24,000 bases of DNA from an uncultured Actinomycetes bacterium (GTDB lineage: Bacteria > Actinomycetota > Thermoleophilia > UBA2241), in the NCBI GenBank assembly GCA_963725665.1, contig CAVRZA010000004.1, positions 207,543-231,542 of the forward strand. Reading direction: 5' to 3'. The translations under genes and the position numbers were made by a program. Shown piece by piece: positions 2,259 through 18,625 of this stretch. Each line of letters begins with the position of its first letter. The stretch's first letter is position 1. The notes under the pieces were generated by a model. The model was given only the letters and a program-made list of their open reading frames with translations, did no database searches and was not told the origin of the DNA.

Positions 2259-2290
2259 CCGCGGGCGGACCGCGATGAGAAAGGAACTGC

Positions 2291-2590
2291 ATGCCGAGCG
2301 TGAGAAGACGAACCGAGAAGAAGCGGACCGGGCCGGGCGTCGGCTCGCGCCGGCGCTACTGCCACTTCTGCAAAGAGAAGATCGACGTGATCGACTACAA
2401 GGAGTTCGGGGCGCTGCGCAAGTTCATCAGCGACAGGGGCAAGATCAAGTCGCCGCGCACCACCGGGACCTGCCGGCGCCACCAGCGCCAGGTGGCCGTC
2501 GCCGTCAAGCGGGCCCGCGAGATGGCCCTTCTTCCCTACGTCTTCGCGGCCCCGGACGCGGAGAGGGGCGGTCGTCGGCGCCCTCGCTGA
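2291..2590 (+). CDS. rpsR: 30S ribosomal protein bS18 (Cys-containing form, with a basic C-terminal tail)
   Basis: [64 protein letters not shown] is the bS18 core. GAAAGGA SD upstream. It is not in the usual rpsF-ssb-rpsR-rplI context here. Confidence 0.92.
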
Positions 2591-2632: not shown

Positions 2633-4066
2633 ATGAAGGTCCGCCTCATCGAGCCCGCGCCGCGGGGCATGAACACGTTCAGCATGATCCTGCTCCCCCG
2701 CCTCGGTCTGCCCATTATCGCCACGACGCTCAGGCAGCAGGGGCACGACGCGAAGATCTACGCCCCTCAGATGGCGCCGGTCGTCTGGTCCGACGTCTAC
2801 GACGCCGACCTGGTCGGGATCACGACGACCACCTCGACGGTGACCGACGCCTACCGGTTCGCCGACGACGTGCGCTCCCGCGGGATCCCGGTCGTCATGG
2901 GCGGCTCGCACGTGACGTTCATGGCCGATGAGGCTCTCGAGCACGCCGACTACGTCGGGCGCGGCGAGGGAGGCGAGCAGCTCATGCCCGAGCTGATCGA
3001 GGCGCTTGGCGGAGACCGTGAGCTGGAGAGCATCAAGGGCCTGTCGTTCCGCCGTGACGGCGAGGCCGTGCACAACGAGCCGCGCGGCTTCTGCACGAAG
3101 CTCGAGGATCTGCCGTTCCCCGACATGACGCTGATCCACGGCCACGAGAACCTGCACACGACGCCGATGATGACGAGCTGGGGATGTCCCTTCAACTGCC
3201 ACTTCTGCTCGGTCACGGCGCTGTTCGGCAGGAAGTACCGCTATCGCAGCGCGGACAGTGTGCTCGCCGAGCTGCGCGAGAAGCGGCCGCGCAAGGTGTT
3301 CTTCTACGACGACAACCTGGCCGCCAACAAGCGCCGGCTCAAGGAGCTTCTGCGCAGGATGATCGCCGAGGACCTGGTCACGCCGTGGTCGGCGCAGGTG
3401 CGCGTCGACGTCGCCAGGGACGAGGAGCTGCTCGAGCTGATGCGCGACTCGGGCTGCGTGATGGTGTACCTCGGTCTGGAGTCGGTGAACCAGGAGACGC
3501 TGGACAGTTACGACAAGCACCAGACCGTCCAGGACATCGTCGACGGCGTGCGGGCGCTGCATCGCTACGGCATCATGAGCCACGGCATGTTCGTCGTGGG
3601 GGCCGACTCCGACACGCGCCAGACCATCCAGGATACCGTCGACTTCGCCAAGAAGAACGGCATCGACACGATCATGTTGAGCGCGCTCACGCCGCTTCCC
3701 GGCACCACGACCTTCCGCGAGCTCGACGAGCAGGGCCGCATCTTCGACAAGCGCTGGGAGTTCTACGACTCCCACCACGTCGTCTTCCATCCCGCCACGA
3801 TGTCGGCCCACGAGCTGCAGCTCGAAGCCCTGAAGGCCTATCGTCGCTTCTACTCCAGGGGGCAGTGGCTCAAGTACCTTCTGACCTTCCGCTTCACGAG
3901 GCTCCTCTTTCAGACCTGGGGGATGTACATCAGGGCGAACTGGCTCCGGAACGAGGACAACAAGGCTTTCATGACGTCGGTGCAGGAGGCCTCCGCCCGG
4001 CGTGCGCTGGCGCCCGCTCGGGCTCCGGACACTCCCGAGCCGGCGGCTCCCGGCTCCCCTTCCTGA
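2633..4066 (+). CDS. B12-binding-domain radical SAM protein (class B rSAM), substrate unknown
   Basis: 477 aa. An N-terminal Rossmann-like cobalamin-binding-type domain (..DLVGITTTTST..GIPVVMGGSHVT..) is followed by CPFNCHFC (CxxxCxxC, nt 3185-3208) and a TIM-barrel-like rSAM core (VFFYDDN, YLGLESV, FVVG). The C-terminal region is amphipathic/hydrophobic. Confidence 0.9.
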   Translation: MKVRLIEPAPRGMNTFSMILLPRLGLPIIATTLRQQGHDAKIYAPQMAPVVWSDVYDADLVGITTTTSTVTDAYRFADDVRSRGIPVVMGGSHVTFMADEALEHADYVGRGEGGEQLMPELIEALGGDRELESIKGLSFRRDGEAVHNEPRGFCTKLEDLPFPDMTLIHGHENLHTTPMMTSWGCPFNCHFCSVTALFGRKYRYRSADSVLAELREKRPRKVFFYDDNLAANKRRLKELLRRMIAEDLVTPWSAQVRVDVARDEELLELMRDSGCVMVYLGLESVNQETLDSYDKHQTVQDIVDGVRALHRYGIMSHGMFVVGADSDTRQTIQDTVDFAKKNGIDTIMLSALTPLPGTTTFRELDEQGRIFDKRWEFYDSHHVVFHPATMSAHELQLEALKAYRRFYSRGQWLKYLLTFRFTRLLFQTWGMYIRANWLRNEDNKAFMTSVQEASARRALAPARAPDTPEPAAPGSPS

Positions 4067-6131: not shown

Positions 6132-6379
6132 GGAGCGACTCCTCCTCGTCGATCGAAGCCGGCGTCGCCGGCGGCCGTCACGGCAGGTCGCGGCCGCCGG
6201 CCCATAGGAGCATTCGCCGCCGCCACTCCCTCGTCAAGTCAGCCCGACGGTATGCTTGTCGCTGATCAGTGCGCCGGAGTGGGGTGCTGGTCGGGATCAT
6301 GGAGGCTGCCGGCTTGTTCTCGGGGCGGCGTCCCGGAGTGCGTGTGGGTGCGCGCTCCGGTGTCAGGAAGGGGCTGCGT

Positions 6380-7816
6380 GTGAAGGCAGAGTTGCGAGTC
6401 TTGAGCCCGGCCGAGCGCGAGCAAGTGCACGAGCGCACGCTGCACGTCCTCGCCACCAAGGGCATGCGCGTCGACACGGCCCAGGGACGTGTGATCCTCC
6501 GCGAAGCCGGGGGGCAGGTCGACGAAGAGACGCGCGGTGTCCGCTTCCCCGAGGAGCTCGTCGAGCGGTCGATCGACATGGCGACCAAGGAGTTCGCGCT
6601 CGGCGGTCGCCGAGCCGATTGGAGCTTCGCGCTGAACGCCGGCGGCTTCTCGCTCTGTGCAGACGGCGGCAGCAACGTGTTGCTCGACCGGCGCACGGGC
6701 GAGCGCCGCGATTCGACATTCGAGGATTGGCTCGAGATGACGCGCGTCCTCGACGCCATCGAGGACGTCGGGATGTACTGGTGCATGATCGACGGCGGTC
6801 TCGACTGGTCGACGCCCGTCGGCATGGTCGAGTACCTGACGCACCTGTTCGGCACGTTCGGGCGCCACGTGCAGGACTCCTACGACACGCCGCGGGTCAT
6901 GCCCTGGGTCACGCGTGCGCTCGAGGTCGTCTTCGGCAGCCGCGAGGAGGTGCGTCGCCGGCATCCGTTCTCGTTTCTGATCACGCCGGCCTCGCCCCTG
7001 ATCATCGAGGAGCACTACACCGAGTCCTGGCTCGCCTCACGCGGCTACGATATTCCCGTCGCCGTGATGCCGATGCCGCTCATGGGCGCCACCGCGCCCG
7101 GGAGCCGCATCGCCACGCTGGTGCAGGCGAACTGCGAGGTCCTGGGCACGCTCTGCCTGGTGCAGGCGGCCGACCCGGGGGTGCCGTTCATCTACGCGCC
7201 CGTCGTCGCTAGCATGGACCCGCGCAGCGGGCGCTACAGCGGCGGCGCCATGGAGCACTACGTGCTCGGCGCCGCCGCGACCGAGATGGCCCGTCACTAC
7301 GGCTTTCCAGTGCTTGCCAGCGGCTGCGGCACCGACCATTTCGTGCCCTCGCTGCAGGCGGCCTACGAAAAGGCGATGAGCGCTCTGCTCGTTACCCTCT
7401 CGTGGCCCGACTTGCTAGTTGGCCCCGGCATGCTCGGCGGCGCCTCGGTCATGAGCTTCGAGCAGCTCGTCATGGACGTCGAGGTCTTCCGCGCCGCGCG
7501 CGCCGCGCACGAGGGCATCACGGTGAGCGATGAGTCATGGCTGGATGAAGCTGTGGCGCACGTCGACTTCGGCGGCAGCTTCCTGTTCGAGAGATCGACC
7601 AAGGAGAACGTGCGCCGCGGCGAGTGGGCGATGAGCCGCTTCGGCCTGCACGACACGCGCGGCGCCTGGGAGCGCGGCGGCTCGCCGACGACGCTCCAGC
7701 AGGCGCGCGACGAGGTAGAGCGGCTCCTCGCCTCGCACGAGCCGGAGCCGCTCCCCGAGGACGTCGCGCGCGCGCTGCGAGATCTGCGTCGTGAGGCGGC
7801 CGCGGCGTCCTCCTGA
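6380..7816 (+). CDS. MttB-superfamily (trimethylamine-methyltransferase-like) corrinoid methyltransferase, non-pyrrolysine type
   Basis: From GTG 6380 (AGGAAGGGG SD at 6365-6373): VKAELRVLSPAEREQVHERTLHVLATKGMRVD..EELVERSIDMA.. through ..FERSTKENVRRGEW.. is colinear with the MttB family (about 478 aa). The frame is uninterrupted, with no in-frame TAG. The ORF-track start at 6269 is probably too early. Confidence 0.87.
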   Translation: MKAELRVLSPAEREQVHERTLHVLATKGMRVDTAQGRVILREAGGQVDEETRGVRFPEELVERSIDMATKEFALGGRRADWSFALNAGGFSLCADGGSNVLLDRRTGERRDSTFEDWLEMTRVLDAIEDVGMYWCMIDGGLDWSTPVGMVEYLTHLFGTFGRHVQDSYDTPRVMPWVTRALEVVFGSREEVRRRHPFSFLITPASPLIIEEHYTESWLASRGYDIPVAVMPMPLMGATAPGSRIATLVQANCEVLGTLCLVQAADPGVPFIYAPVVASMDPRSGRYSGGAMEHYVLGAAATEMARHYGFPVLASGCGTDHFVPSLQAAYEKAMSALLVTLSWPDLLVGPGMLGGASVMSFEQLVMDVEVFRAARAAHEGITVSDESWLDEAVAHVDFGGSFLFERSTKENVRRGEWAMSRFGLHDTRGAWERGGSPTTLQQARDEVERLLASHEPEPLPEDVARALRDLRREAAAASS

Positions 7817-8982: not shown

Positions 8983-10507
8983 GTGTCCATCGTCCTTGAC
9001 GGCAGCTCGCTGACGATCGAGAAGCTGGCGGCCATCGCCCGTGACGGCGAGGCGGTCGTGCTCGACGCGGCGGCTCTCGAGCGCATCCGTCGCTGCCGCG
9101 AGATGCTCGAAGAGAAGCTCGCGGCAGGCGAGATCATGTACGGCACCAACACCGGCATCGGCGAGTTCTCCGAGGTCGTGCTCAACGACCAGCAGGTGCA
9201 GGAGTTCCAGCGCTCGCTCATCTACAACCACGCCGCCGGCATCGGCGAGCCGGCCCCCGAGGAAGTCGTGCGCGCCGCCATGGCGAGCCGTGTCAACGTG
9301 CTCGCCCGCGGGCACTCCGGCATCCGCGCCGAGATCCCGCTCACCCTGGTGAAGATGCTCAACGGCGGCGTCACGCCGGTGATCTGCCAGAAGGGCTCCG
9401 TAGGCGCCTCCGGCGACCTCGCCCCGATGGCGCAGATGGCGCTGCTCATGATGGGCGAGGGCGAGGCCTTCTACCAGGGCGAGCGCCTGCCCGGGCGAGC
9501 GGCCATGGAGCGGGCCGGCATCCCGGTGCCGGGCCTGCATGCCCGCGACGGCCTGGCGATCATCAACGGCTCCAACGTGCTTACCGCCATGAGCGCCCTG
9601 CTGCTCGTCGACGTCGAGCGCTGGCTGCGCCAGGCGGAGATCGCCTGCGCCATGAGCCTCGAGGCGCTGCTGGCGAACCTCAAGCCCTACGACGTGCGCC
9701 TGCACGAGCTGCGCGGCTTCGCCGGCGCGGTCCGCAGCGCCCGGACCATCATGCGCTGCATCGAGGGCAGCGACCTGGCCACGGGCAAGATCAAGACCAA
9801 GGTCCAGGACGCTTACTCGATGCGCTCATCGCCGCAGGTGATCGGGGCGGCGCACGACGCCGTCGCCTTCGCTCGCTCGCAGGTCGAGATCGAGCTCAAC
9901 GGGGTCGGCGACAACCCCATCTTCCTGCCCGACGAGAGGCTCACGCTCACCGGCGCCAACTTCCAGGGCACGCCCGTCTCACTGCCCATGGAGCTGGTCG
10001 GTCAGGCAATCACGATGGTCTGCGTGTTGAGTGAGCGGCGCCTGAACCGCCTCGAGAACCCCGCCCTCAGCCAGGGGCTGCCCGACTTCTTAACGCCCGA
10101 CCCCGGCTTCTACTCGGGCCTGATGCTCAGCCAGTACACCGCCGACACGCTGATCGTCGAGCAGCGCCTCCTCTCCGCCCCCGCCTCGACGATGTCGATC
10201 CCCGCCGCGGCCGACCAGGAGGACTTCGTCTCCATGGGCATGAACACGGCCCTCAAGAACCGGCAGATCCTCGAGAACGCGTGCGGGGTGCTGGGCATCG
10301 AGTTCATGGCGGCGGCGCAGGCGCTCGACTTTCGCGACTTCACGCCCGGGAAGGGGCGTGCGGGTCGCGCACGACGTCATCCGGCGGCACGTGGCGCACC
10401 TGGATGAGGACCGGCCTCTCTACCCAGACCACAACGCGATGATGGCTCTCGTGCGCTCTGGCGAGATCCTCGCGGCGGTCGAGGAGGCCGTGGGACCGCT
10501 GGCGTGA
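8983..10507 (+). pseudogene. MIO-dependent aromatic-amino-acid/histidine ammonia-lyase or aminomutase family enzyme, with one +1 frame change near the 3' end (pseudogene or sequence error)
   Basis: From GTG 8983 (GGGGAAGGAGAGG SD): ..YGTNTGIGEFSE..LIYNHAAGIG..GSVGASGDLAPMAQ (Ala-Ser-Gly MIO triad at nt 9406-9414) ..NGSN..QDAYSMRSSPQV..GDNP..NFQG..DQEDFVSMG... After ..FTPGKG the conserved tail VRVAHDVIRRHVAHLDEDRPLYPDHNAMMALVRSGEILAAVEEAVGPLA* continues in the next frame. The junction is at about 10354-10358. The 8263-8982 part of the track ORF is a non-coding extension overlapping DUF72. Confidence 0.85.
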
Positions 10508-10521
10508 GGCTGTGGTACGTA

Positions 10522-10550
10522 TTTCACAGTGGTTGAGCAGCGAGTATTCT
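10522..10550 (+). promoter_or_regulatory. candidate promoter of the ABC importer genes (TTTCAC-N17-TATTCT)
   Basis: Both hexamers with exact 17-nt spacing lie in a locally AT-richer intergenic stretch about 70 nt upstream of ATG 10621. Pattern only. Confidence 0.3.
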
Positions 10551-10620
10551 GTCTTGCTTGCAAGGGGTCGCGCGCTTCCGGGAGCCACGACGCGTGACGA
10601 AGACAAAGGGGAGGAAGACT

Positions 10621-11646
10621 ATGCGTGACTTGTCCACAAGGTCGAGGGTCCTGAGCCTCGCCACCATCCTCGGGCTGGTCGGGCTGGCGCTGCTCGTCGC
10701 CGGCTGCGGGAGCAGCACCACGACGAGCAGCGCCAGCCCCAGCGCCAGCCCGAGCGCGACTTCCACCGCGGCCGCGCCGTGGACCGCCGCCGACCTCGCC
10801 GCGATCACGACCGACAGCTCACTCACGGCCTTGCTGCCGGCCGACATCCAGAGCAGCGGCGTGATCAAGTGCCTGAGCGACATCCCGTACCCGCCGTGGG
10901 AGTACTTCGACCCGCCGACCAGCACCAATCCGGCCGGCTTCGACTTCGACATGTCCCAGGCGCTGGGAAAGAAGCTCGGCGTCGAGGTCAAGTTCATCGA
11001 CAGTACGTTCGAGTCCATCCTGCTCAAGATCAAAGGCGGCCAAGGCGACATGGCCTTGTCGGCGATGTACGACAACGAGGAGCGTCAGAAGGCCGGCTAC
11101 AGCTTTGTCGACTACACGTTCGACGGCACAGGCATCCTGGTCGCCAAGGGCAACCCCAACGGGATCACCGGCCTGGACAGCCTCGCGGGTAAGACGGTCG
11201 CCGTCGAGAGTGGCGCGACACAGGTGGTTGTGCTTCAGGAACTGAACAAGGACTTTCAGAGCGCCGGCGAGTCGCAGATGCAGATCCTGAGCCTCCCGGA
11301 CCAGCCCGCGGCGCTGCTCGCGGTCAAGAGCAATCGGGCCGTCGCCGACCTGACCGACTTCTCCACAGCCGTGGACATCGCCACGACGAACGACGGCAAC
11401 ACCTTCGAGGTGGTCCGCGATCCGGCGGCGCCCTACGAGCCGCAGATGAACGGTATGGCCGTGCTCGCCACGAACACGCAGCTCGTGGACGCCCTCCAGA
11501 AGGCGCTGCAGGCCCTGATCGACGAGGGTTCCTACCAGAAGCTGGTCGCGGCGTGGGGCTTCGTCCCTGTCGAGTCGGCGCAGGTGAACCAGGGTCCGGC
11601 CTACGCCGCGAGCCACGCAGGTCTCCCCGTGAGCCCCTCGCCGTAA
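10621..11646 (+). CDS. polar-amino-acid-type ABC transporter substrate-binding lipoprotein (SBP family 3)
   Basis: ATG 10621 follows AAGGGGAGGAAG. There is a signal peptide with lipobox LLVAGC and a Ser/Thr/Ala linker, then ..PYPPWEYF..GFDFDMSQALGKKLGVEVKF..FESILLKIKGGQGDMALSAMY..LAGKTVAVESGAT.., typical of His/Glu/Gln/Arg-type binding proteins. Confidence 0.87.
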   Translation: MRDLSTRSRVLSLATILGLVGLALLVAGCGSSTTTSSASPSASPSATSTAAAPWTAADLAAITTDSSLTALLPADIQSSGVIKCLSDIPYPPWEYFDPPTSTNPAGFDFDMSQALGKKLGVEVKFIDSTFESILLKIKGGQGDMALSAMYDNEERQKAGYSFVDYTFDGTGILVAKGNPNGITGLDSLAGKTVAVESGATQVVVLQELNKDFQSAGESQMQILSLPDQPAALLAVKSNRAVADLTDFSTAVDIATTNDGNTFEVVRDPAAPYEPQMNGMAVLATNTQLVDALQKALQALIDEGSYQKLVAAWGFVPVESAQVNQGPAYAASHAGLPVSPSP

Positions 11647-11650
11647 CACC

Positions 11651-12628
11651 ATGACGGTTGTGGGACCTTCTGGCCAGCTTGAAGGAGGTGCGGCGGCGCC
11701 CGGGGCGGGCTTGCCCGCCCCGGGCGCCGCGCGCCCGGAGGCGATAAAGGCGATCCCGGTCCGTCACTGGGGCCGCTGGATCGGCGCCGCTATCGTCATC
11801 TACCTGGTTGTGGCTCTCGCGTACTCGTTCGTCAAGAACAGCAACGTGGAGTGGCCGGTGGTATGGGAGTACCTGTTCAAGCCGCTGACGCTGCGCGGCC
11901 TGTTGCTCACGATCGAGCTGACGTTCGTCTCGATGGTGATCGGCGCGGCCGGCGGAGTCCTTCTGGCTGTGATGCGGCTCTCCGACAACTACGTGCTCTC
12001 GGGTATCGCCTGGGTCTACATCTGGTTCTTCCGTGGCACCCCGGTCTACGTGCAGATCATCATCTGGGCCAACCTGGGTGTGTTTTATCCGAATGTCATC
12101 GCGGGGCTGCCGTTCACCGGTGTCGTGTTCGGCTCCACCGACAGCGGCACACTCGTGGCGCGCATCATCGTGCCCGCCATCCTCGCCCTCGGTCTGAACG
12201 AGGCGGCCTACGCCGCCGAGCTGGTGCGGGCCGGCATCATCTCCGTCGAGGCGGGTCAGACCGAAGCGGCGCTGTCGCTGGGCATGTCGCCCACGCTCAC
12301 CATGCGCCGGGTCGTGTTGCCGCAGGCGATGCGTGTGATCATCCCCACGTTCGGCAACGAGACGATCAGCATGCTCAAGACAACGTCGCTGATCGCCGCC
12401 ATCGGCGGCCTCGAGATGTTCGGCCGCCTGCAGTCGGTCTACTCACAGACCTACCAGATCATCCCGCTGCTCGTCGTGGCCTGCATCTGGTATCTCTTCC
12501 TCACGTCGGTCCTGACCATCGGCCAGGGCTACCTCGAGGCGTATTTTGGGAAGGGCTTCGGGGAGAAAGAGGCCGAGGCCGCGGAGAAGCGGGCCGTGAA
12601 GCGAGCAGCGAGGGCGCCGCATGTCTGA
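11651..12628 (+). CDS. amino-acid ABC transporter permease (HisMQ family)
   Basis: Multi-pass membrane protein with ..[13 protein letters not shown].. and the EAA loop [32 protein letters not shown]. Its stop overlaps the ATPase start (ATGTCTGA). The N-terminal extent is uncertain. Confidence 0.85.
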
Positions 12629-13439
12629 CGAGAGCGGACATATTGTCTCGCCGACCGTCTCGGGGGTGTCGGCCGGCCAGCCCATGGTCAAGGCCGAGCA
12701 GGTCTGGAAGAGCTTCGGCAAGCTCGACGTGCTCAAAGGCATCGATCTCGAGGTCATGCCCCAGGAGACCTACGTCCTCCTCGGTCCGTCGGGCGGCGGC
12801 AAGTCGACGCTCCTGCGCTGCATCAACCATCTCGAGAAGATCAACGCCGGGCGGCTGTGGGTCGGCGGCGAGCTCATGGGCTATCGCCAGAGGGGCGATG
12901 TCCTGCATGAGATGCGGGCGAAGGACGTCGCGCGTCAGCGCTCTGAGGTGGGCATGGTCTTCCAGCGCTTCAACCTCTTCCCGCACATGACCGCCATCGA
13001 GAACGTGATGGAGTCGCCGATCAAGGTGCAGCACGTGCCTCGCCAGCGAGCCGAGAACGAGGCCGAGGAGCTGCTGACCAGGGTGGGCCTGAAGGAGAAA
13101 CTCGACGTGTACCCGGCTCAGCTCTCGGGTGGCCAGCAGCAGCGCGTCGCCATCGCCCGGGCCCTGGCCATGAAGCCCAAGCTGATGCTCTTCGACGAGC
13201 CCACCTCGGCGCTCGACCCCGAACTGGTGGGCGAGGTGCTCGACGTGATGAAGCAGCTTGCCCGCGACGGCATGACCATGGTCGTCGTGACACACGAGAT
13301 GGGCTTCGCCAAGGAGGTCGCCGACGGCGTGGCGCTGATAGACGGCGGCGTCATTGTCGAGAATGGTCCGCCGCTCGAGGTTCTCGTCAACCCGAAGGAA
13401 GAGCGCACGAAGCTCTTTCTGTCGAAGGTGCTCTCCTAG
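12621..13439 (+). CDS. amino-acid ABC transporter ATP-binding protein
   Basis: Walker [11 protein letters not shown]-loop, signature [15 protein letters not shown], Walker [13 protein letters not shown] and H-loop VVTHEM are present. Confidence 0.92.
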
Positions 13440-13601: not shown

Positions 13602-14261
13602 ATGTCGACCACCGAGAAGCTCATCCTGGCCGTGCAGGACGGTGACGGCGAACAAGCCGCCGCCCTTGCCCGTCAGGCCCTCGACGAGGGCGCCGAAGCG
13701 GCAGCCCTCGTCGACGCGCTGACGGGCTGCATACGCGAGATCGGCGATCGCTTCGGCACCGGCGAGATCTTCCTGCCCGAGCTGATGCTGGCTGGGCGCG
13801 CGATGCAGGGCGCGATGAGCGTCCTCGAGCCGGAACTTGTGAGGTCGTCGGCCGCCCTGCGGAAGCGCGGCACCATCGTGATCGGCACCGTGAAGGGCGA
13901 CGTGCACGAGATCGGCAAGGATATCGCCACCACCATGCTCAAGGCGGCGGGGTTCGATGTGCACGACCTCGGTCGGGACGTGAGCTCGTTCGACTTCGTG
14001 CGCCGGGCCGAGGAGGTGCACGCCGACATCATCGGCGCCTCCGCCCTGATGACCACGACGATGCCGGCGCAGAAGGAGATCATCGACGTCCTCGAGGCGA
14101 AGGGCCTGCGCGCGAAGTACCACGTGATCATCGGCGGCGCCCCGGTCACCAGCGAGTGGGTCGCCGAGGCGGGCGCCGACAGCTGGGGCGAGGACGCCGG
14201 TAAGGCCGTGAAGATCCTCGAGCAGGTGATGGCCGAGAAGGCCGGGAAGCTGGAGGGCTGA
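13602..14261 (+). CDS. methyltransferase cognate corrinoid (cobalamin-binding) protein, MtmC/MttC/MtgC-like
   Basis: 219 aa. A helical N-terminal cap domain is followed by a B12-binding Rossmann domain with GDVHEIGK (DxHxxG, nt 13899-13916), SALMTTT and IIGGAP motifs. GGGAGGAAGG SD upstream. Confidence 0.9.
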   Translation: MSTTEKLILAVQDGDGEQAAALARQALDEGAEAAALVDALTGCIREIGDRFGTGEIFLPELMLAGRAMQGAMSVLEPELVRSSAALRKRGTIVIGTVKGDVHEIGKDIATTMLKAAGFDVHDLGRDVSSFDFVRRAEEVHADIIGASALMTTTMPAQKEIIDVLEAKGLRAKYHVIIGGAPVTSEWVAEAGADSWGEDAGKAVKILEQVMAEKAGKLEG

Positions 14262-14265
14262 CGAC

Positions 14266-15651
14266 ATGCCGCACCTGAAGATGTGGGAGATCATGCAGCG
14301 GGCCGCCGAGGGCCCCTTCTGCGAAGACGACACCTTCCTCTACGAGGTCTTCCTGCCGACGATGAAGCAGGTCCTGCGCAAGTACGAGATCAGGTTCGAC
14401 CCGGCCTCACCGGTGCCCGCAGACGACGATCTCGCCGACCGCGTCTGGCGAGGCCGCCGTCGAGCTGTTCCTCGAGGTCGGCGTGCACAACGTCGACACG
14501 CAGCGGCGCATCATGATCAGCGAGGCCGAGCTGAACGAGGCGCTCTACCTCGCGCCCCGAGCAGCACATCGTCGGGGCGGGCCACGAGACGCGCTGGTGG
14601 AGGCCGCGTCGTGTCGAGGACGAGCGCGCGCCGTTCTGCATCTTCAGCCCCGACATCACCTACGACGAGGACATCTTCCTGCAGGCCTCGATGGCCTACG
14701 TGCAGGAGCCTCTGGCCGACGGTGTGTGCGGTCCTATCCTCGAGGAGAGCATCGGCGCGCAACATCGTCTCGGGCACGCCCTCGGAGATGGCCGGCGTGA
14801 TGGAGCACGCCATGTTGCTGCGCAACGCGGCGAAGCTGGTCGGCCGGCCGGGGCTCTTCTTGGTCGCGGTGGGCACCGCCCAGTCCGACACGGGTCAGGT
14901 CGCCGTCAGCAACGACGAGTGGGGTGTGCGCGCGAGCGATGGTCGCCTCATCGGCGTGCTTACCGAGATGAAGACCGACAACGAGCTTCTGAACAAGGTC
15001 GCTCACTGCAAGCAGTACGGCTGCGCCATCGGCTGCCTGACGGGCGCCATCTACGGCGGCTACGCCGGTGGCGCCGAGGGCACCGCCGTGCTCGAGACCG
15101 CCCATCACCTGGTGGGCCTGACCGTCTACCAGCACAACTTCAACAACAGCTTCCCGTTCCACCTGCAGTACACGTCCAACAGCGGGCGGGAGATGCTGTG
15201 GGTGGTCAGCATGGTGCACCAGGCGCTGGCGCGCAACAGCCGCATCCTGTCGACCTCGCAACGGCTTCTTCAACGCCGGACCGGGGACCGACATGCTCCT
15301 CTACGAAGCGGCCGCGCACGCCATCGCCAGCACCGTGTCCGGAGGCGACCTGTGGACGGCGGCGCCGCGGCACAACAAGTACCGCAACTACGCGACGCCG
15401 CTCGAGGCGCGTCTCGCCTGCGAGGCCGCCCACGCTGTGGCGCGGCAGGGGATGACGCGCGCGCAGGCCAACGAGATCGTCGTACAAGCTCCTCGGCGAG
15501 TACGAGGAGACGATCGCCGACGCCCCGGCCGGCAAGCCCTTCCAGGAGTGCTACGACGTCATGAAGGTGCGGCCGAAAGAGCTGGTACCTCGACATGTAC
15601 AAAGCCGCCAAGGAGAAGCTACACGGCCTGGGCGTCGAGTTTCCCTATTGA
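14266..15651 (+). pseudogene. MtmB-superfamily (monomethylamine methyltransferase-like) gene, non-pyrrolysine type, broken by six +1 frame changes
   Basis: Splicing six ORF segments gives a ~460-aa protein colinear with methanogen MtmB as I recall it: MPHLKMWEIMQRAAEGPFCEDD..DRVW | EAAVELFLEVGVHNVDTQRRIMISEAELNEALYLAP | EQHIVGAGHETRWW..GPILEESIGA | NIVSGTPSEMAGVMEHAMLLRNAAKLVGRPGLFLVAVGTAQ..YGGYAGGAEGTAV..SRILSTS | NGFFNAGPGTDMLLYEAAAHAI..ANEIV | YKLLGEYEETIADAPAGKPFQECYDVMKVRPKEL | YLDMYKAAKEKLHGLGVEFPY*. Junctions are at about 14449, 14555-14558, 14760, 15259, 15482 and 15585. Each moves to the next frame (1>2>3>1>2>3>1). Confidence 0.8.
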
Positions 15652-15669
15652 GGCTGGCGCTGCCCGGCG

Positions 15670-17062: not shown

Positions 17063-17560
17063 ATGGCGCCGCTCGACCAGGATACCATCATCGGACACGT
17101 CCACCTCAAGGTGGCGGACCTCGACCGTGCCGTGGCCTTCTATCGCGACGTGCTCGGCTTCGACCTGACGACCCGCCTCGGCGCCCAGGCCGCCTTCCTC
17201 TCGGCCGGCGGCTACCACCACCACATCGGTCTCAATACGTGGGAGTCGGCGGGCGGGTCACCTCCTCCTCCGGGGACGACCGGGCTCTACCACTTCGCCG
17301 TCCGCTTCCCCACGAGACGTGCGCTTGCCGAGGCGCTGCTGCGGCTGATCGAGGTGCGCTACCCGATCGAGGGGGCGTCGGACCACGGTGTGAGCGAGGC
17401 GATCTACCTGCGTGACCCCGACGGCAACGGTATCGAGCTCTACTGGGATCGGCCGCGCGAGGAGTGGCCGCACGACCGCGACGGCGACCTTGAGATGTTC
17501 ACCGCCGCCCTCGACCTCGAAGAGCTCCTGGCCGAGGTGCGGCGGTCGAACGGGGATTGA
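17063..17560 (+). CDS. VOC (glyoxalase / extradiol-dioxygenase fold) family protein
   Basis: 165 aa: IGHVHLKVADLDRAVAFYRDVLGFDL..GYHHHIGLNTWE..LYHFAVRFP..DHGVSEAIYLRDPDGNGIELYWDRP matches the CatE/YfiE-like VOC subgroup. GGGAGTGGAG SD upstream. Confidence 0.88.
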   Translation: MAPLDQDTIIGHVHLKVADLDRAVAFYRDVLGFDLTTRLGAQAAFLSAGGYHHHIGLNTWESAGGSPPPPGTTGLYHFAVRFPTRRALAEALLRLIEVRYPIEGASDHGVSEAIYLRDPDGNGIELYWDRPREEWPHDRDGDLEMFTAALDLEELLAEVRRSNGD

Positions 17561-17649
17561 GGTCCGCGGGTCGGTCGCGCGGCCGATCGACCGAGGGTCT
17601 CGCAGGGGTTTTCAAGCGTCGGGCGATCGTGTTCGATACAGTGAGTGTG

Positions 17650-17880
17650 ATGCGCGACGGAGACTGCCCCTACCTGCGGTGCGAGAAGACGGCTCGGCGA
17701 CTGCACGGCCTCACTGTCGATCAGACAGGGCCCATGGAGGTGTCGGAGGTCTGGTACTGTCGTCACCCCTTCCACGGGGTGGAAGTGCCGGTGGCCGGCA
17801 AGCGGGGTGAGGCGCAGCGGGTCTGCGCCCTCTGTACGCTCCCCGGCAGGGTGGGCGCCTCGTCCGCCGACGGCGAGTGA
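17650..17880 (+). CDS. hypothetical small Cys/His-rich protein (possible metal-binding)
   Basis: MRDGDCPYLRCEKT..VWYCRHPFHGV..RVCALCTLPGR has the pattern C-x4-C, C-x-H-x2-H, C-x2-C. Third-position GC is moderately high. There is no clear SD. In-frame alternative starts lie at 17641, 17647 and TTG 17557 (overlapping the VOC stop as TTGA). I recognise no family. Confidence 0.4.
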   Translation: MRDGDCPYLRCEKTARRLHGLTVDQTGPMEVSEVWYCRHPFHGVEVPVAGKRGEAQRVCALCTLPGRVGASSADGE

Positions 17881-18001
17881 GGCGAGTCGCGGCCCTGCGG
17901 CGGTCGGCAGGGGCACAGAAGGACGGCGGGGGCGCGACCCTGGTGTAGACGGACGTTCTATGGAGCAGGCGTTGCTCGAGGCTGATATTTATCAGCGAGA
18001 G

Positions 18002-18062
18002 GCGGGGACTGACCTTCTCTCATCGGCTCGCCAGGCTACGCTTTCCCTAGGACAGTCCCCGC
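18002..18062 (+). other. long hairpin H1 in the lower-GC non-coding stretch
   Basis: gcggggactg (18002-18011) and cagtccccgc (18053-18062) are exact reverse complements enclosing 41 nt. The pyrimidine/T-rich tctttcctttg follows. Confidence 0.45.
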
Positions 18063-18165
18063 TCTTTCCTTTGCCGGGAGCGCCGACACTCTCTGGTCCA
18101 CGTCATCGTGTCCCCTTCCCCCGAGAAATCTGAAGGAATCTCAGCAGGGAGGGCGAATGAAGCGC

Positions 18166-18238
18166 GGGGGCTGCCAAACACCAGTGCTCCTTTGGCTCGC
18201 TCAACTGGTCTTTCTCACACCTGGCAGCCCCCTTTTCT
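18166..18238 (+). terminator. long hairpin H2 followed by TTTTCT (candidate intrinsic terminator / 3' end of an untranslated RNA)
   Basis: gggggctgcca (18166-18176) and tggcagccccc (18222-18232) are exact reverse complements. An inner stem accagt/actggt is also present. TTTTCT at 18233-18238 follows directly. Confidence 0.45.
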
Positions 18239-18433
18239 ATGCTCTCGTGCGGGCGCGCGATGGGTCGTCGCGAAGCCGCCCTGTGACGGCGTGACGTGCG
18301 GCTCGGGCCTTGAGCGGCGGCTTTACAGCCTTGGGGGTGGGTGCCAGAATAGCCGCTGGCCATCGGGCCGGACGCCCGTGGCGAGTGTCGACATACCTGC
18401 TCGCCCCTCGGTCCCCCAGAGAAGGAGCCGTTC

Positions 18434-18625
18434 ATGGCAAAGCCTGTCGTCGATGCGGAACTGTGCACCGGTTGCGGCACCTGCGAGGCCCTGTGCCCCG
18501 AGGTGTTCGAGGTGCGCGACGACGGCATCGCCTACGTCATCGATCCCGACGCCTGCAACGAGGTGGACTGCTGCGAAGAGGCAGCGGAGAGCTGCCCCGA
18601 AGAGGCGATCACGTTCGTCGACTGA
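18434..18625 (+). CDS. small single-cluster [4Fe-4S]/[3Fe-4S] ferredoxin
   Basis: 63 aa: CTGCGTCEALCP ... ESCPEEAI is the classic CxxCxxC...CP ligand pattern of small actinobacterial/thermophile ferredoxins. AGAAGGAG SD upstream. Confidence 0.9.
   Translation: MAKPVVDAELCTGCGTCEALCPEVFEVRDDGIAYVIDPDACNEVDCCEEAAESCPEEAITFVD

Follow-up and report, generated by a model that had tools for sequence, protein, structure and literature searches.

A bacterial pyrrolysine-less MtmB-family methyltransferase gene whose six frame changes are very probably assembly errors

Nucleotides 14266..15651 (+ strand) of the window (the whole 24,000-nucleotide stretch of DNA that was analysed) encode what is, judged by its sequence, an ordinary member of a widespread bacterial family of MtmB-type methyltransferases that lack pyrrolysine (Pyl). 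The deposited DNA does not offer an uninterrupted frame: this MtmB-family gene carries six 1-nt insertions. These are very probably single-base errors of a long-read metagenome consensus rather than biology, and the gene is most likely intact in the cell. Artefact is favored because the lesions are exclusively insertions, because they recur at the same alignment columns in other long-read contigs, because they are absent elsewhere, and because constraint on the encoded protein is not relaxed.

Removing the six single bases converts the 1386 nt of the deposited form to 1380 nt: 459 codons, within which a search for in-frame TAG, TAA and TGA found none, followed by TGA. The gene assignment rests on translation, profile, structure-linked sequence match and orthologue alignment. 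The spliced protein matches the PF05369 MtmB profile over positions 2-449 of 450 (318.8 bits against a gathering score of 25 bits; E 7.6e-95), and in a sequence search its residues 7-458 align with residues 10-458 of M. barkeri MtmB (1L2Q/1NTH; E 2.2e-61). The family membership and the colinearity with methanogen MtmB that the initial annotation had read from the letters alone are thus borne out from end to end, and so is its statement that the gene contains no TAG. (None of the NCBIfam models names the MtmB-like protein.) The repaired product is 87-90% identical to the intact homologues P0001 and L027; that six shifts in the same direction should restore a 459-aa protein of such similarity is not a matter of chance.

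Three-frame translation and DNA alignment with eight intact 1380-nt orthologues (later 37) resolve the gene into seven in-frame segments, read in frames 1>2>3>1>2>3>1: 14266-14448, 14453-14554, 14559-14756, 14761-15255, 15260-15481, 15486-15575 and 15583-15651 (all on the + strand). Set against these orthologues, the frame changes that had been noted at the outset prove to be exactly six insertions of 1 nt each; the same comparison found neither deletions nor substitution-type stops nor any larger lesion in 14266-15651. The insertions (+ strand throughout) are these: CGAG at 14449..14452 (frame 1>2) in place of an orthologue codon CAG, CGA or AAG; CCCC at 14555..14558 (2>3) in place of the Pro codon CCG or CCT; GCGC at 14757..14760 (3>1) for CGC, AGG or CGG; TCGC at 15256..15259 (1>2) for the Ser codon AGC; GTAC at 15482..15485 (2>3) for GAC or GGC; and AAAGAGC at 15576..15582 (3>1) for two codons (e.g., CAG AGC or CAG GGC). 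The 432-aa frame-1 open reading frame is on record from the 653,833-bp NCBI/ENA contig, and the lesion is thus in the deposit itself. Insertion sites fall at locally more variable positions than random ones do (0.162 versus 0.133, P=0.04). Inspection by eye of both strands around the six sites disclosed no convincing methylation-type or other common motif. It is plausible that the insertions arise by tandem retention of both alleles of a synonymous SNP: the scheme fits six of six sites, but in a GC-rich gene it would accommodate most insertions placed at random as well. A mosaic or chimeric gene was considered and discarded: identity to the best orthologue is 82-90% in all seven segments, and nowhere does the gene change over to a near-identical donor.

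What stands in the place of pyrrolysine? The Pyl202 column of MtmB is filled by the first Val of LVAVGT, codon GTC at 14863..14865 (+), as placed by alignment with MtmB and with archaeal loci; six Methanosarcinales loci have their single in-frame TAG in this same column. The in-frame UAG at the residue-202 position that defines a bona fide Pyl-MtmB is accordingly replaced by GTC, an ordinary sense codon, as had been surmised. The nearest junctions are 103 nt upstream and 391 nt downstream, so that the column does not coincide with a frame change, a complication that the initial annotation had raised. (A technical note: the surrounding peptide, VGRPGLFLVAVGTAQ, had been identified correctly, and only its coordinates, given as 14842-14880 in place of 14839-14883, were trivially offset.) Val occupies the Pyl column in 113 of 118 sequences, these being the repaired window protein and 117 homologues. 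The clade is recognized by this Val, by a length of 457-461 aa and by the motif GRPGxFLVAVGTA(Q/E)SD; the repaired protein has the Val, is 459 aa long and presents the motif as VGRPGLFLVAVGTAQSD.

The repaired protein bears the marks of selection. At the 124 columns with conservation of 97% or more it has no private change (median 1 and maximum 7 among the 118 sequences), and this zero bounds the number of neutral substitutions at approximately 13 or fewer. Its dN/dS against orthologues, 0.12-0.23, is the range that is found among intact orthologue pairs. The gene is under purifying selection as in other members of the clade, and its constraint is not relaxed.

The methyltransferase gene is tightly coupled to an intact gene for its cognate corrinoid-binding protein (13602..14261, +; 219 aa; MtmC/MtbC/MtgC-like, with PF02607 and PF02310 matches, B12-binding_2 plus B12-binding), which ends 4 nt upstream. 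The junction, read directly from the sequence, consists of the stop TGA (14259-61), CGAC and the ATG at 14266; a Shine-Dalgarno-like GGAGG (14252..14256, +) is embedded in the corrinoid gene near its 3' end and precedes that ATG by 9 nt. The 4-nt spacer and the placement of the ribosome-binding site inside the upstream gene had both been described correctly, and the coupling is general: a homologue of the corrinoid gene is found immediately 5' of the MtmB-like gene in all of the approximately 60 loci examined, and the spacer in orthologues is 1-3 nt, or the two genes overlap. Against TIGR02370 ("methyltransferase cognate corrinoid protein") the corrinoid protein scores 204 bits, slightly under the cut-off, and it falls below the NCBIfam cut-offs for MtbC and MtgC.

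Directly upstream of this cassette, profile matches identify an ABC transporter of the polar-amino-acid type (10558..13439, +), made up of genes for an SBP_bac_3 protein (10558-11646), a permease (11651-12628) and an ATPase (12621-13439), all on the + strand. It is possibly in one transcription unit with the cassette; a promoter-like site at 10523-10550 is a consensus match only. The window also encodes a HAL-like lyase beside the cassette (9010-10407) and a Pyl-less MttB homologue (6269-7816; COG5598, PF06253); in 10 of the fetched loci the cassette has MttB homologues in its vicinity. The chromosomal setting, upstream of ftsEX-M23-S41-RNase R, is common to the window and one Thermoleophilia MAG, and many Thermoleophilia, Anaerolineae, Actinomycetes and Peptococcaceae have intact orthologous cassettes. 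Scanning the window against Rfam and for tRNAs returned no matches, and the 24 kb show no pyl genes. All of the approximately 20 other genes of the window are full length. This concentration of errors in one gene, with some 20 kb of neighboring coding sequence clean, has the classical look of a pseudogene and runs counter to an artefact.

Comparison with orthologues, which the initial annotation had suggested, found eight and later 37 that are intact at 1380 nt, together with three that are damaged like the window gene. The closest relative, L072 (94% nucleotide identity; it surfaced solely through a protein-fragment search), has 9 insertions, L073 has 7, and L020, a Nanopore-only MFD MAG, has 2; all three are Flye-style long-read contigs. 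None of the three has a deletion, and in all three neighboring genes are broken too, mostly by +1 shifts. Taken together with the window, these contigs hold 24 insertions distributed over 18 positions, five of which are hit two to three times. Sites 3, 4 and 5 of the window are among the repeatedly hit positions, and the local sequence differs at two of them, which implies that the lesions there are not identical by descent: an extra base occurs in the site-3 column of L072 and L073 in different local sequences, and L072 also has an extra base in the site-5 column, but reads CTGC. Only at site 4 (TCGC) is the lesion of L072 identical, so that L072 shares three insertion positions with the window, one of them sequence-identical; this one could be inherited, which is also counter to an artefact. 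No frame shift was found in the 37 aligned full-length orthologues, or in approximately 50 orthologues from other assemblies (mostly SPAdes/MEGAHIT-named or JGI contigs). All three affected contigs belong to a set of nine long-read-style contigs (hypergeometric P ~0.002). The gene is intact in the six other Flye-style MFD contigs, an observation that likewise sits awkwardly with an artefact.

The MFD assemblies are Nanopore-only, made with Flye and a single round of Medaka polishing (PMC12313526). The assembly behind the window is probably also of this Nanopore-only, Flye/Medaka type, a platform that we infer from the 654-kb length of the window's contig and from its relatives. Single samples hold several bins with the gene (e.g., L001 and L002; L003, L007 and L019), and the insertions probably arise where reads from co-occurring populations, whose copies of this highly conserved gene are 85-94% identical, pile up at variable codons. 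We know of no documented reason for consensus errors that are insertions only. Searches of genome and metagenome collections yielded nothing above 90% amino acid identity to the window gene. The exact corrinoid protein is also encoded in run ERR12037368, on a Logan contig of 1363 bp that covers sites 1 and 2. Ten guessed sequences for the 133-aa partial product of that contig were absent from the collection, but so was a 44-aa control from the same contig, which leaves the absence without weight; homology searches queried with the first 133 residues (one query padded out-of-frame) returned no near-identical partial sequence. Exact look-up of the ATPase, the LPG-synthase-like protein and the glyoxalase led to no other contigs.

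The initial annotation had left two branches standing, technical frame changes and a freshly decayed gene; the evidence favors the technical branch and, with constraint not relaxed, disfavors decay. Might the insertions nevertheless be real, and the gene a very young pseudogene, the methyltransferase having just been lost while the corrinoid gene and the neighbors were kept? That the lesions lie inside a single gene with all neighbors intact, that they are present in the deposited record, and that the site-4 lesion is identical in the closest relative all accord with such a history. It is unlikely all the same. Six insertions set against at most about 13 neutral substitutions make a ratio far above that of bacterial pseudogenes as generally known, and every one of the 24 lesions in the four contigs is an added base, whereas deletions predominate in bacterial decay. 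A young pseudogene would also have to accommodate the striking of the same columns, in different local sequences, in L073, which is only 85% identical and has intact nearest relatives, the confinement of lesions to long-read-style contigs, and the undamaged state of the partner corrinoid gene.

Real insertions might instead be bypassed, the full-length protein being made through +1 frameshifting, programmed or of the hungry-codon type, or through quadruplet decoding. What gives this proposal its limited appeal is that an extra C right before a GAG, AAC or AAG codon is one possible parse of five of the six sites, under which the incoming frame meets a rare CGA or CAA (2.4 and 2.0 per 1000 codons in the genes of the window); such a parse is allowed by 25% of random insertions (P=0.005 for at least five of six), and the pattern was chosen post hoc. 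Site 2 (CCC C) is slippery and site 6 (AAA G) possibly so. At four or five of the sites, however, the P-site tRNA is unable to re-pair, and the combination of a slippery P-site with a stop or slow A-site, conserved in orthologues, that characterizes prfB- or hungry-codon-type recoding is not what is found here: the incoming frame has no stop and stays open for 432 codons, and the 37 intact orthologues have no shift at all. Nor do the sites have a quadruplet or longer motif in common; quadruplet decoding was rejected on examining the four-base units (CGAG, CCCC, GCGC, TCGC, GTAC, and AAAG or GAGC), all of which differ. Six serial events would leave a negligible product, and contigs differ in where their lesions lie and in how many they have (2 to 9), in step with assembly type. 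Recoding is, in short, so improbable that it can practically be set aside in favor of consensus error.

What would the intact gene do? By analogy with the family, the two-gene cassette, corrinoid protein gene followed by the gene for a Pyl-less member of the MtmB superfamily, would supply the substrate-specific part of a methyl-transfer pathway: the 459-aa TIM-barrel protein would be the "MT1" enzyme, binding a methylated amine and handing a single methyl group on to the Co(I) corrinoid carried by the product of the gene 4 nt upstream; the pathway would be completed by a second methyltransferase and by a RamA-type reductive activase that is encoded elsewhere. Relative to Pyl-MtmB (M. barkeri MtmB1; 1NTH/1L2Q, PF05369), the window protein belongs to the same family, has the same length, is colinear over residues 7-458, retains the GRPG before the active-site column and the C-terminal APAGK(P/T)FQECYDV block, and likewise has its corrinoid-protein gene directly upstream. 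It differs in being only ~30% identical, in having Val at the position of Pyl (UAG) and AVGTA in place of GPETS, and in having a bacterial (Thermoleophilia-like) host. With Val in place of the Pyl of true monomethylamine methyltransferases, its substrate is probably something other than free monomethylamine. The full-length MtmB match, and the annotation of homologues as "monomethylamine:corrinoid methyltransferase" in the sources, could be taken to argue for a genuine monomethylamine enzyme that works without pyrrolysine; the conserved hydrophobic Val, the altered flank, the low identity to Pyl-MtmB and the preference of the sole characterised Pyl-less MtmB homologue for quaternary tetramethylammonium and choline make this very improbable.

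That homologue, MtqB of Methanococcoides methylutens Q3c (ACT9XH_RS04775), was identified in 2026 as a tetramethylammonium/choline:corrinoid methyltransferase and is the only member of the class with a demonstrated function (PMC13044021). It too is a Pyl-less protein of the MtmB superfamily paired with its own corrinoid protein; it differs in being archaeal and in feeding methyl-CoM (PMC13044021). Its branch is marked by conserved Met, Cys and aromatic residues around the ligand. A published tree has 1,061 sequences, and most Pyl-less MtmB proteins are labelled "unknown function" (PMC13044021); to call the role of such proteins "essentially unexplored" was an overstatement: they are a long-known class, to which the window adds one Thermoleophilia-like lineage. 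The Pyl-less MttB family (COG5598: MtgB for glycine betaine, MtcB, MtpB and others), in which Pyl was lost or never present, offers a parallel to the window pair in its methylamine-methyltransferase fold, its use of other methylated amines and its dedicated corrinoid proteins; it differs in belonging to PF06253 rather than PF05369 and in that substrates have been established for several of its members. Among bacteria, the Pyl-less MtmB homologue Ga0180325_111810 of "Ca. Formimonas warabiya" DCMF is expressed and, by proteomics, strongly induced by dichloromethane (PMC9768040). It is a different paralogue, reported to be ~30% identical to other MtmB-superfamily proteins (PMC9768040); the window gene is related instead to the DCMF protein P0080 (62% identity), whose gene adjoins hutP.

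Gene neighborhoods provide a weak lead to the substrate. A HAL-like lyase recurs beside the cassette in three clades (the window, L072, L045, L011, L046 and L014), and hutP is immediately upstream of the cassette in "Ca. Formimonas warabiya" (L070). These neighbors, together with the basic/polar amino-acid ABC transporter and the MttB homologues of the fetched loci, suggest a reading in which this clade of Pyl-less MtmB/corrinoid pairs, the window gene being taken as intact, would demethylate an N-methylated compound of the histidine type (conceivably N-alpha-methylhistidine, or a hercynine-derived intermediate from the neighboring Pyl-less MttB) and deliver the product to the HAL-like enzyme. 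This is a long shot.

The locus holds a caution: same-direction frame changes in one conserved gene of a long-read MAG can mimic a fresh pseudogene or recoding; here they follow assembly technology, and unrelated contigs are hit again at the same variable codons. The recommendation of this particular copy as a target for substrate discovery was likewise too generous, since hundreds of intact orthologues would serve better; P0001, P0004 and P0080 are preferable starting material to the damaged window copy. In the choice of substrates to be tried, the HAL-like lyase and HutP neighbors are a modest comparative-genomic guide, and a histidine-type substrate, if it proved to be true, would extend the MtmB superfamily to a substrate class that is new for it.

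The gene at 14266-15651 (plus strand) carries MtmB-like peptide segments that run through frames 1>2>3>1>2>3>1 in a three-frame translation of 14266-15660. Spliced together, they give a protein that covers profile positions 2-449 of the 450 in Pfam PF05369 (MtmB; E 7.6e-95, 318.8 bits) and whose residues 7-458 align with 10-458 of the Methanosarcina barkeri MtmB structure (1L2Q/1NTH; E 2e-61): the initial annotation, which proposed an MtmB gene readable only across six +1 frame changes, had the family and the number right. It had also suggested comparison with related genomes: eight orthologues from Thermoleophilia MAGs are intact genes of 1380 nt, from which the window gene differs in length, in a DNA alignment, by six single-base insertions only. 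These lie (sites 1-6, in gene order, plus strand) within 14449-52, 14555-58, 14757-60, 15256-59, 15482-85 and 15576-82. Removing one base per site yields a 459-aa ORF with a terminal TGA, no internal stop and, as had been claimed, no TAG. The intact corrinoid-protein gene directly upstream (13602-14261, plus strand; B12-binding_2 and B12-binding domains) stops 4 nt short of the ATG at 14266 and contains the Shine-Dalgarno-type GGAGG at 14252-56, an arrangement correctly described at the outset. The 432-aa frame-1 ORF product is recorded from a 653,833-bp NCBI/ENA contig; the window sequence is therefore faithful to the deposit.

The modified residue 202 (X) of 1L2Q stands, in a HMMER alignment, opposite the first Val of LVAVGT in the window protein. 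Its codon is GTC (14863-14865), more than 100 nt from the nearest junction, which bears out the assignment of an ordinary sense codon to the pyrrolysine (Pyl) position; the peptide VGRPGLFLVAVGTAQ reported for this site is present, but at 14839-14883, 3 nt away from where it had been placed. Each of six Methanosarcinales loci fetched has a single in-frame TAG in exactly this column. With the repaired window protein added to 117 full-length homologues, 113 of the 118 sequences have Val there, and the surrounding GRPGxFLVAVGTA(Q/E)SD is nearly invariant: the clade is Pyl-less, with a conserved hydrophobic residue in place of Pyl. By its sequence the window gene product falls within PF05369 and lacks Pyl, the defining criterion of true monomethylamine methyltransferases; it is one more ordinary representative of a Pyl-less MtmB clade already known.

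Is the gene broken in the organism or only in its assembly? The decisive test is the comparison of assemblies, which ties the frameshifts to assembly technology: among all bacterial loci fetched, the orthologue is frameshifted only in contigs with Flye-style names. In the remaining assemblies, whose contigs mostly bear SPAdes/MEGAHIT-type names or come from JGI, some 50 orthologues are either whole or truncated only by a contig end. (An apparent frame change at 866-876 of one locus, L054, is not an indel: it is a scaffold gap, an N run plus an inserted stretch.) The other frameshifted copies are those of L020 (1665-3046), from a Nanopore-only Microflora Danica (MFD) MAG, with two 1-nt insertions; L072 (4001-5389; ERZ25039515 contig_36606), the copy most closely related to the window gene (94.4% nucleotide identity), with nine; and L073 (2207-3589; ERZ25039462 contig_13924), with seven. 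MFD assemblies are Nanopore-only, made with Flye and one round of Medaka polishing (PMC12313526). With the window, these copies hold 24 insertions and no deletions, and the insertions occupy only 18 positions. Insertion sites recur across contigs: site 3 is also struck in L072 and L073, with different local sequence in all three; site 5 is also struck in L072, where the local sequence differs, and site 4 likewise, where it is identical; two more insertion columns are common to L072 and L073. Because L073 shares only 85% identity with the window gene and has intact copies as its own closest relatives, the sites shared with it are not shared by descent. Local variability is greater at insertion sites than at random sites (P=0.04).

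The frame changes are most probably an assembly artefact. In the mechanism we infer, conservation of the gene at the DNA level would let reads from co-occurring populations pile up on it, and an extra base would then enter the consensus at codons that differ between populations. Several bins from a single sample carry copies of the gene (roughly 84-88% identical in nucleotide sequence), and the sequence on either side of it cannot be aligned between those genomes. That the gene is instead a true and very young pseudogene is unlikely. The damage does stay within its boundaries (the other genes of the window, about 20 in 24 kb, are all unsplit and match Pfam profiles at full length), and L072 has one of the lesions in identical form. 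Decay would nevertheless have to be an insertion-only mutational burst, almost free of substitutions, and repeated in an unrelated lineage at the same columns. The repaired protein has no private substitution at 124 columns that are each at least 97% conserved among the 117 homologues (per-sequence median 1, maximum 7); since a random substitution has a 0.21 probability of changing the amino acid in one of these columns, the number of neutral substitutions accumulated is capped at about 13 (95% bound). Its dN/dS against orthologues (0.12-0.23) is indistinguishable from that of intact orthologue pairs (0.08-0.26). These constraint tests exclude a decay slow enough to gather six independent indels. 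The initial interpretation, which left technical and real frame changes side by side, is thus supported in part: they are most likely technical.

Programmed +1 frameshifting or quadruplet decoding can be rejected with near certainty: the sites have no quadruplet in common, the incoming frame lacks stops, P-site re-pairing is possible at one or two sites only, and none of the 37 full-length orthologues in the alignment has a shift. The added base at five of the six sites does parse as a C preceding GAG, AAC or AAG, so that the incoming frame meets a rare CGA or CAA; this parse, picked post hoc, fits 25% of random insertions (P=0.005), and we take it to reflect either the reading of a GC-rich gene out of frame or the error process itself.

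Genes flanking the damaged copies in L072, L073 and L020 (corrinoid protein, lyase, SBP) are also broken, with 19 "+1" and 3 "-1" frame changes overall; the damage in these three looks like the product of an insertion-biased consensus error mode in these public assemblies. Many short-read contigs stop inside the gene (L013, L018, L021, L034, L047-L049, L051, L052, L055-L059, L061, L062), and in one MAG, SMAG_U14282, it is split across two contigs (L018, L021). Such ends would be expected if the gene acts as an inter-population repeat in assembly graphs; short contigs could explain much of this.

The window pair is an orthologue of a widespread two-gene cassette. Homologues with E <= 1e-10 number 814; the best 120 of these are almost all 454-461 aa and uninterrupted, and therefore Pyl-free, and every locus examined has a corrinoid-protein gene immediately before the MtmB-like one. 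Downstream, ftsE, ftsX, an M23 peptidase, an S41 peptidase and RNase R are common to the window and one Thermoleophilia MAG; the window copy is therefore chromosomal and vertically inherited. Cassette DNA is 90% identical between window 13629-15660 and L072 3363-5398 (94% for the mtmB-like gene alone). Gene order is unlike, a lyase being downstream in L072 and upstream, past an ABC transporter, in the window, which could be due to rearrangement or to cassette transfer between related lineages.

Cobalamin-dependent enzymes are unusually abundant in the window: besides the corrinoid protein, the MtmB-like protein and an MttB homologue, it encodes a B12-binding radical SAM protein (2633-4066, plus strand; BchE/HpnJ/PhpK-like, below all equivalog cut-offs), directly downstream of the gene for ribosomal protein S18 (2279-2590, plus strand). 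The ~870 bp at 17560-18430, which separate a glyoxalase gene from a small ORF for a 4Fe-4S ferredoxin (~18434-18625), have no Pfam, Rfam or tRNA match; they hold a possible Cys-rich small ORF (~17650-17880; MRDGDCPYLRCEK...) and otherwise no clear coding frame.

Pyl-less MtmB homologues had been called essentially unexplored, which is now only partly true. A first function was assigned in 2026, to MtqB of Methanococcoides methylutens Q3c, whose substrates are tetramethylammonium and choline; most of the 1,061 sequences in the MtmB-family tree of that study are of unknown function (PMC13044021). The protein most strongly induced in 'Ca. Formimonas warabiya' on dichloromethane is a Pyl-less MtmB-superfamily member (PMC9768040).

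What might the substrate be? A histidine-ammonia-lyase-like gene (9010-10407, plus strand; ~465 aa, with a shorter C-terminus, just below the NCBIfam hutH cut-offs) lies in the window. Its counterparts also adjoin the cassette in loci of three clades (L045 8273-9604; L014 7898-9232; L072 6319-7645; L011 3164-3313; L046 3201-3329), following a second corrinoid-protein gene in Anaerolineae-type loci. The association is confined to a minority, 3 of the 40 loci whose downstream sequence extends for 2.5 kb or more, and a literature search on it found nothing. Directly upstream of the cassette are hutP in 'Ca. Formimonas warabiya' (L070 6617-7045) and a polar-amino-acid ABC transporter in the window; 6 kb upstream in the window is an intact Pyl-less MttB-family gene (6269-7816, plus strand; 515 aa; PF06253 E 1.7e-60; TIGR02369 315 bits, under the 525-bit cut-off). 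Ten fetched loci have an MttB homologue close to the cassette; loci with such a neighbour include L005, L015, L017, L039, L050, L053, L057 and L064. No gene for a second methyltransferase or for an activase occurs in the 24-kb window. From the parallel with MtmB/MtmC and MtqB/MtqC, the protein would be expected to take a methyl group from a methylated amine and pass it to its corrinoid partner in the Co(I) form; the lyase, hutP, transporter and MttB neighbours weakly suggest a substrate akin to methylated histidine.
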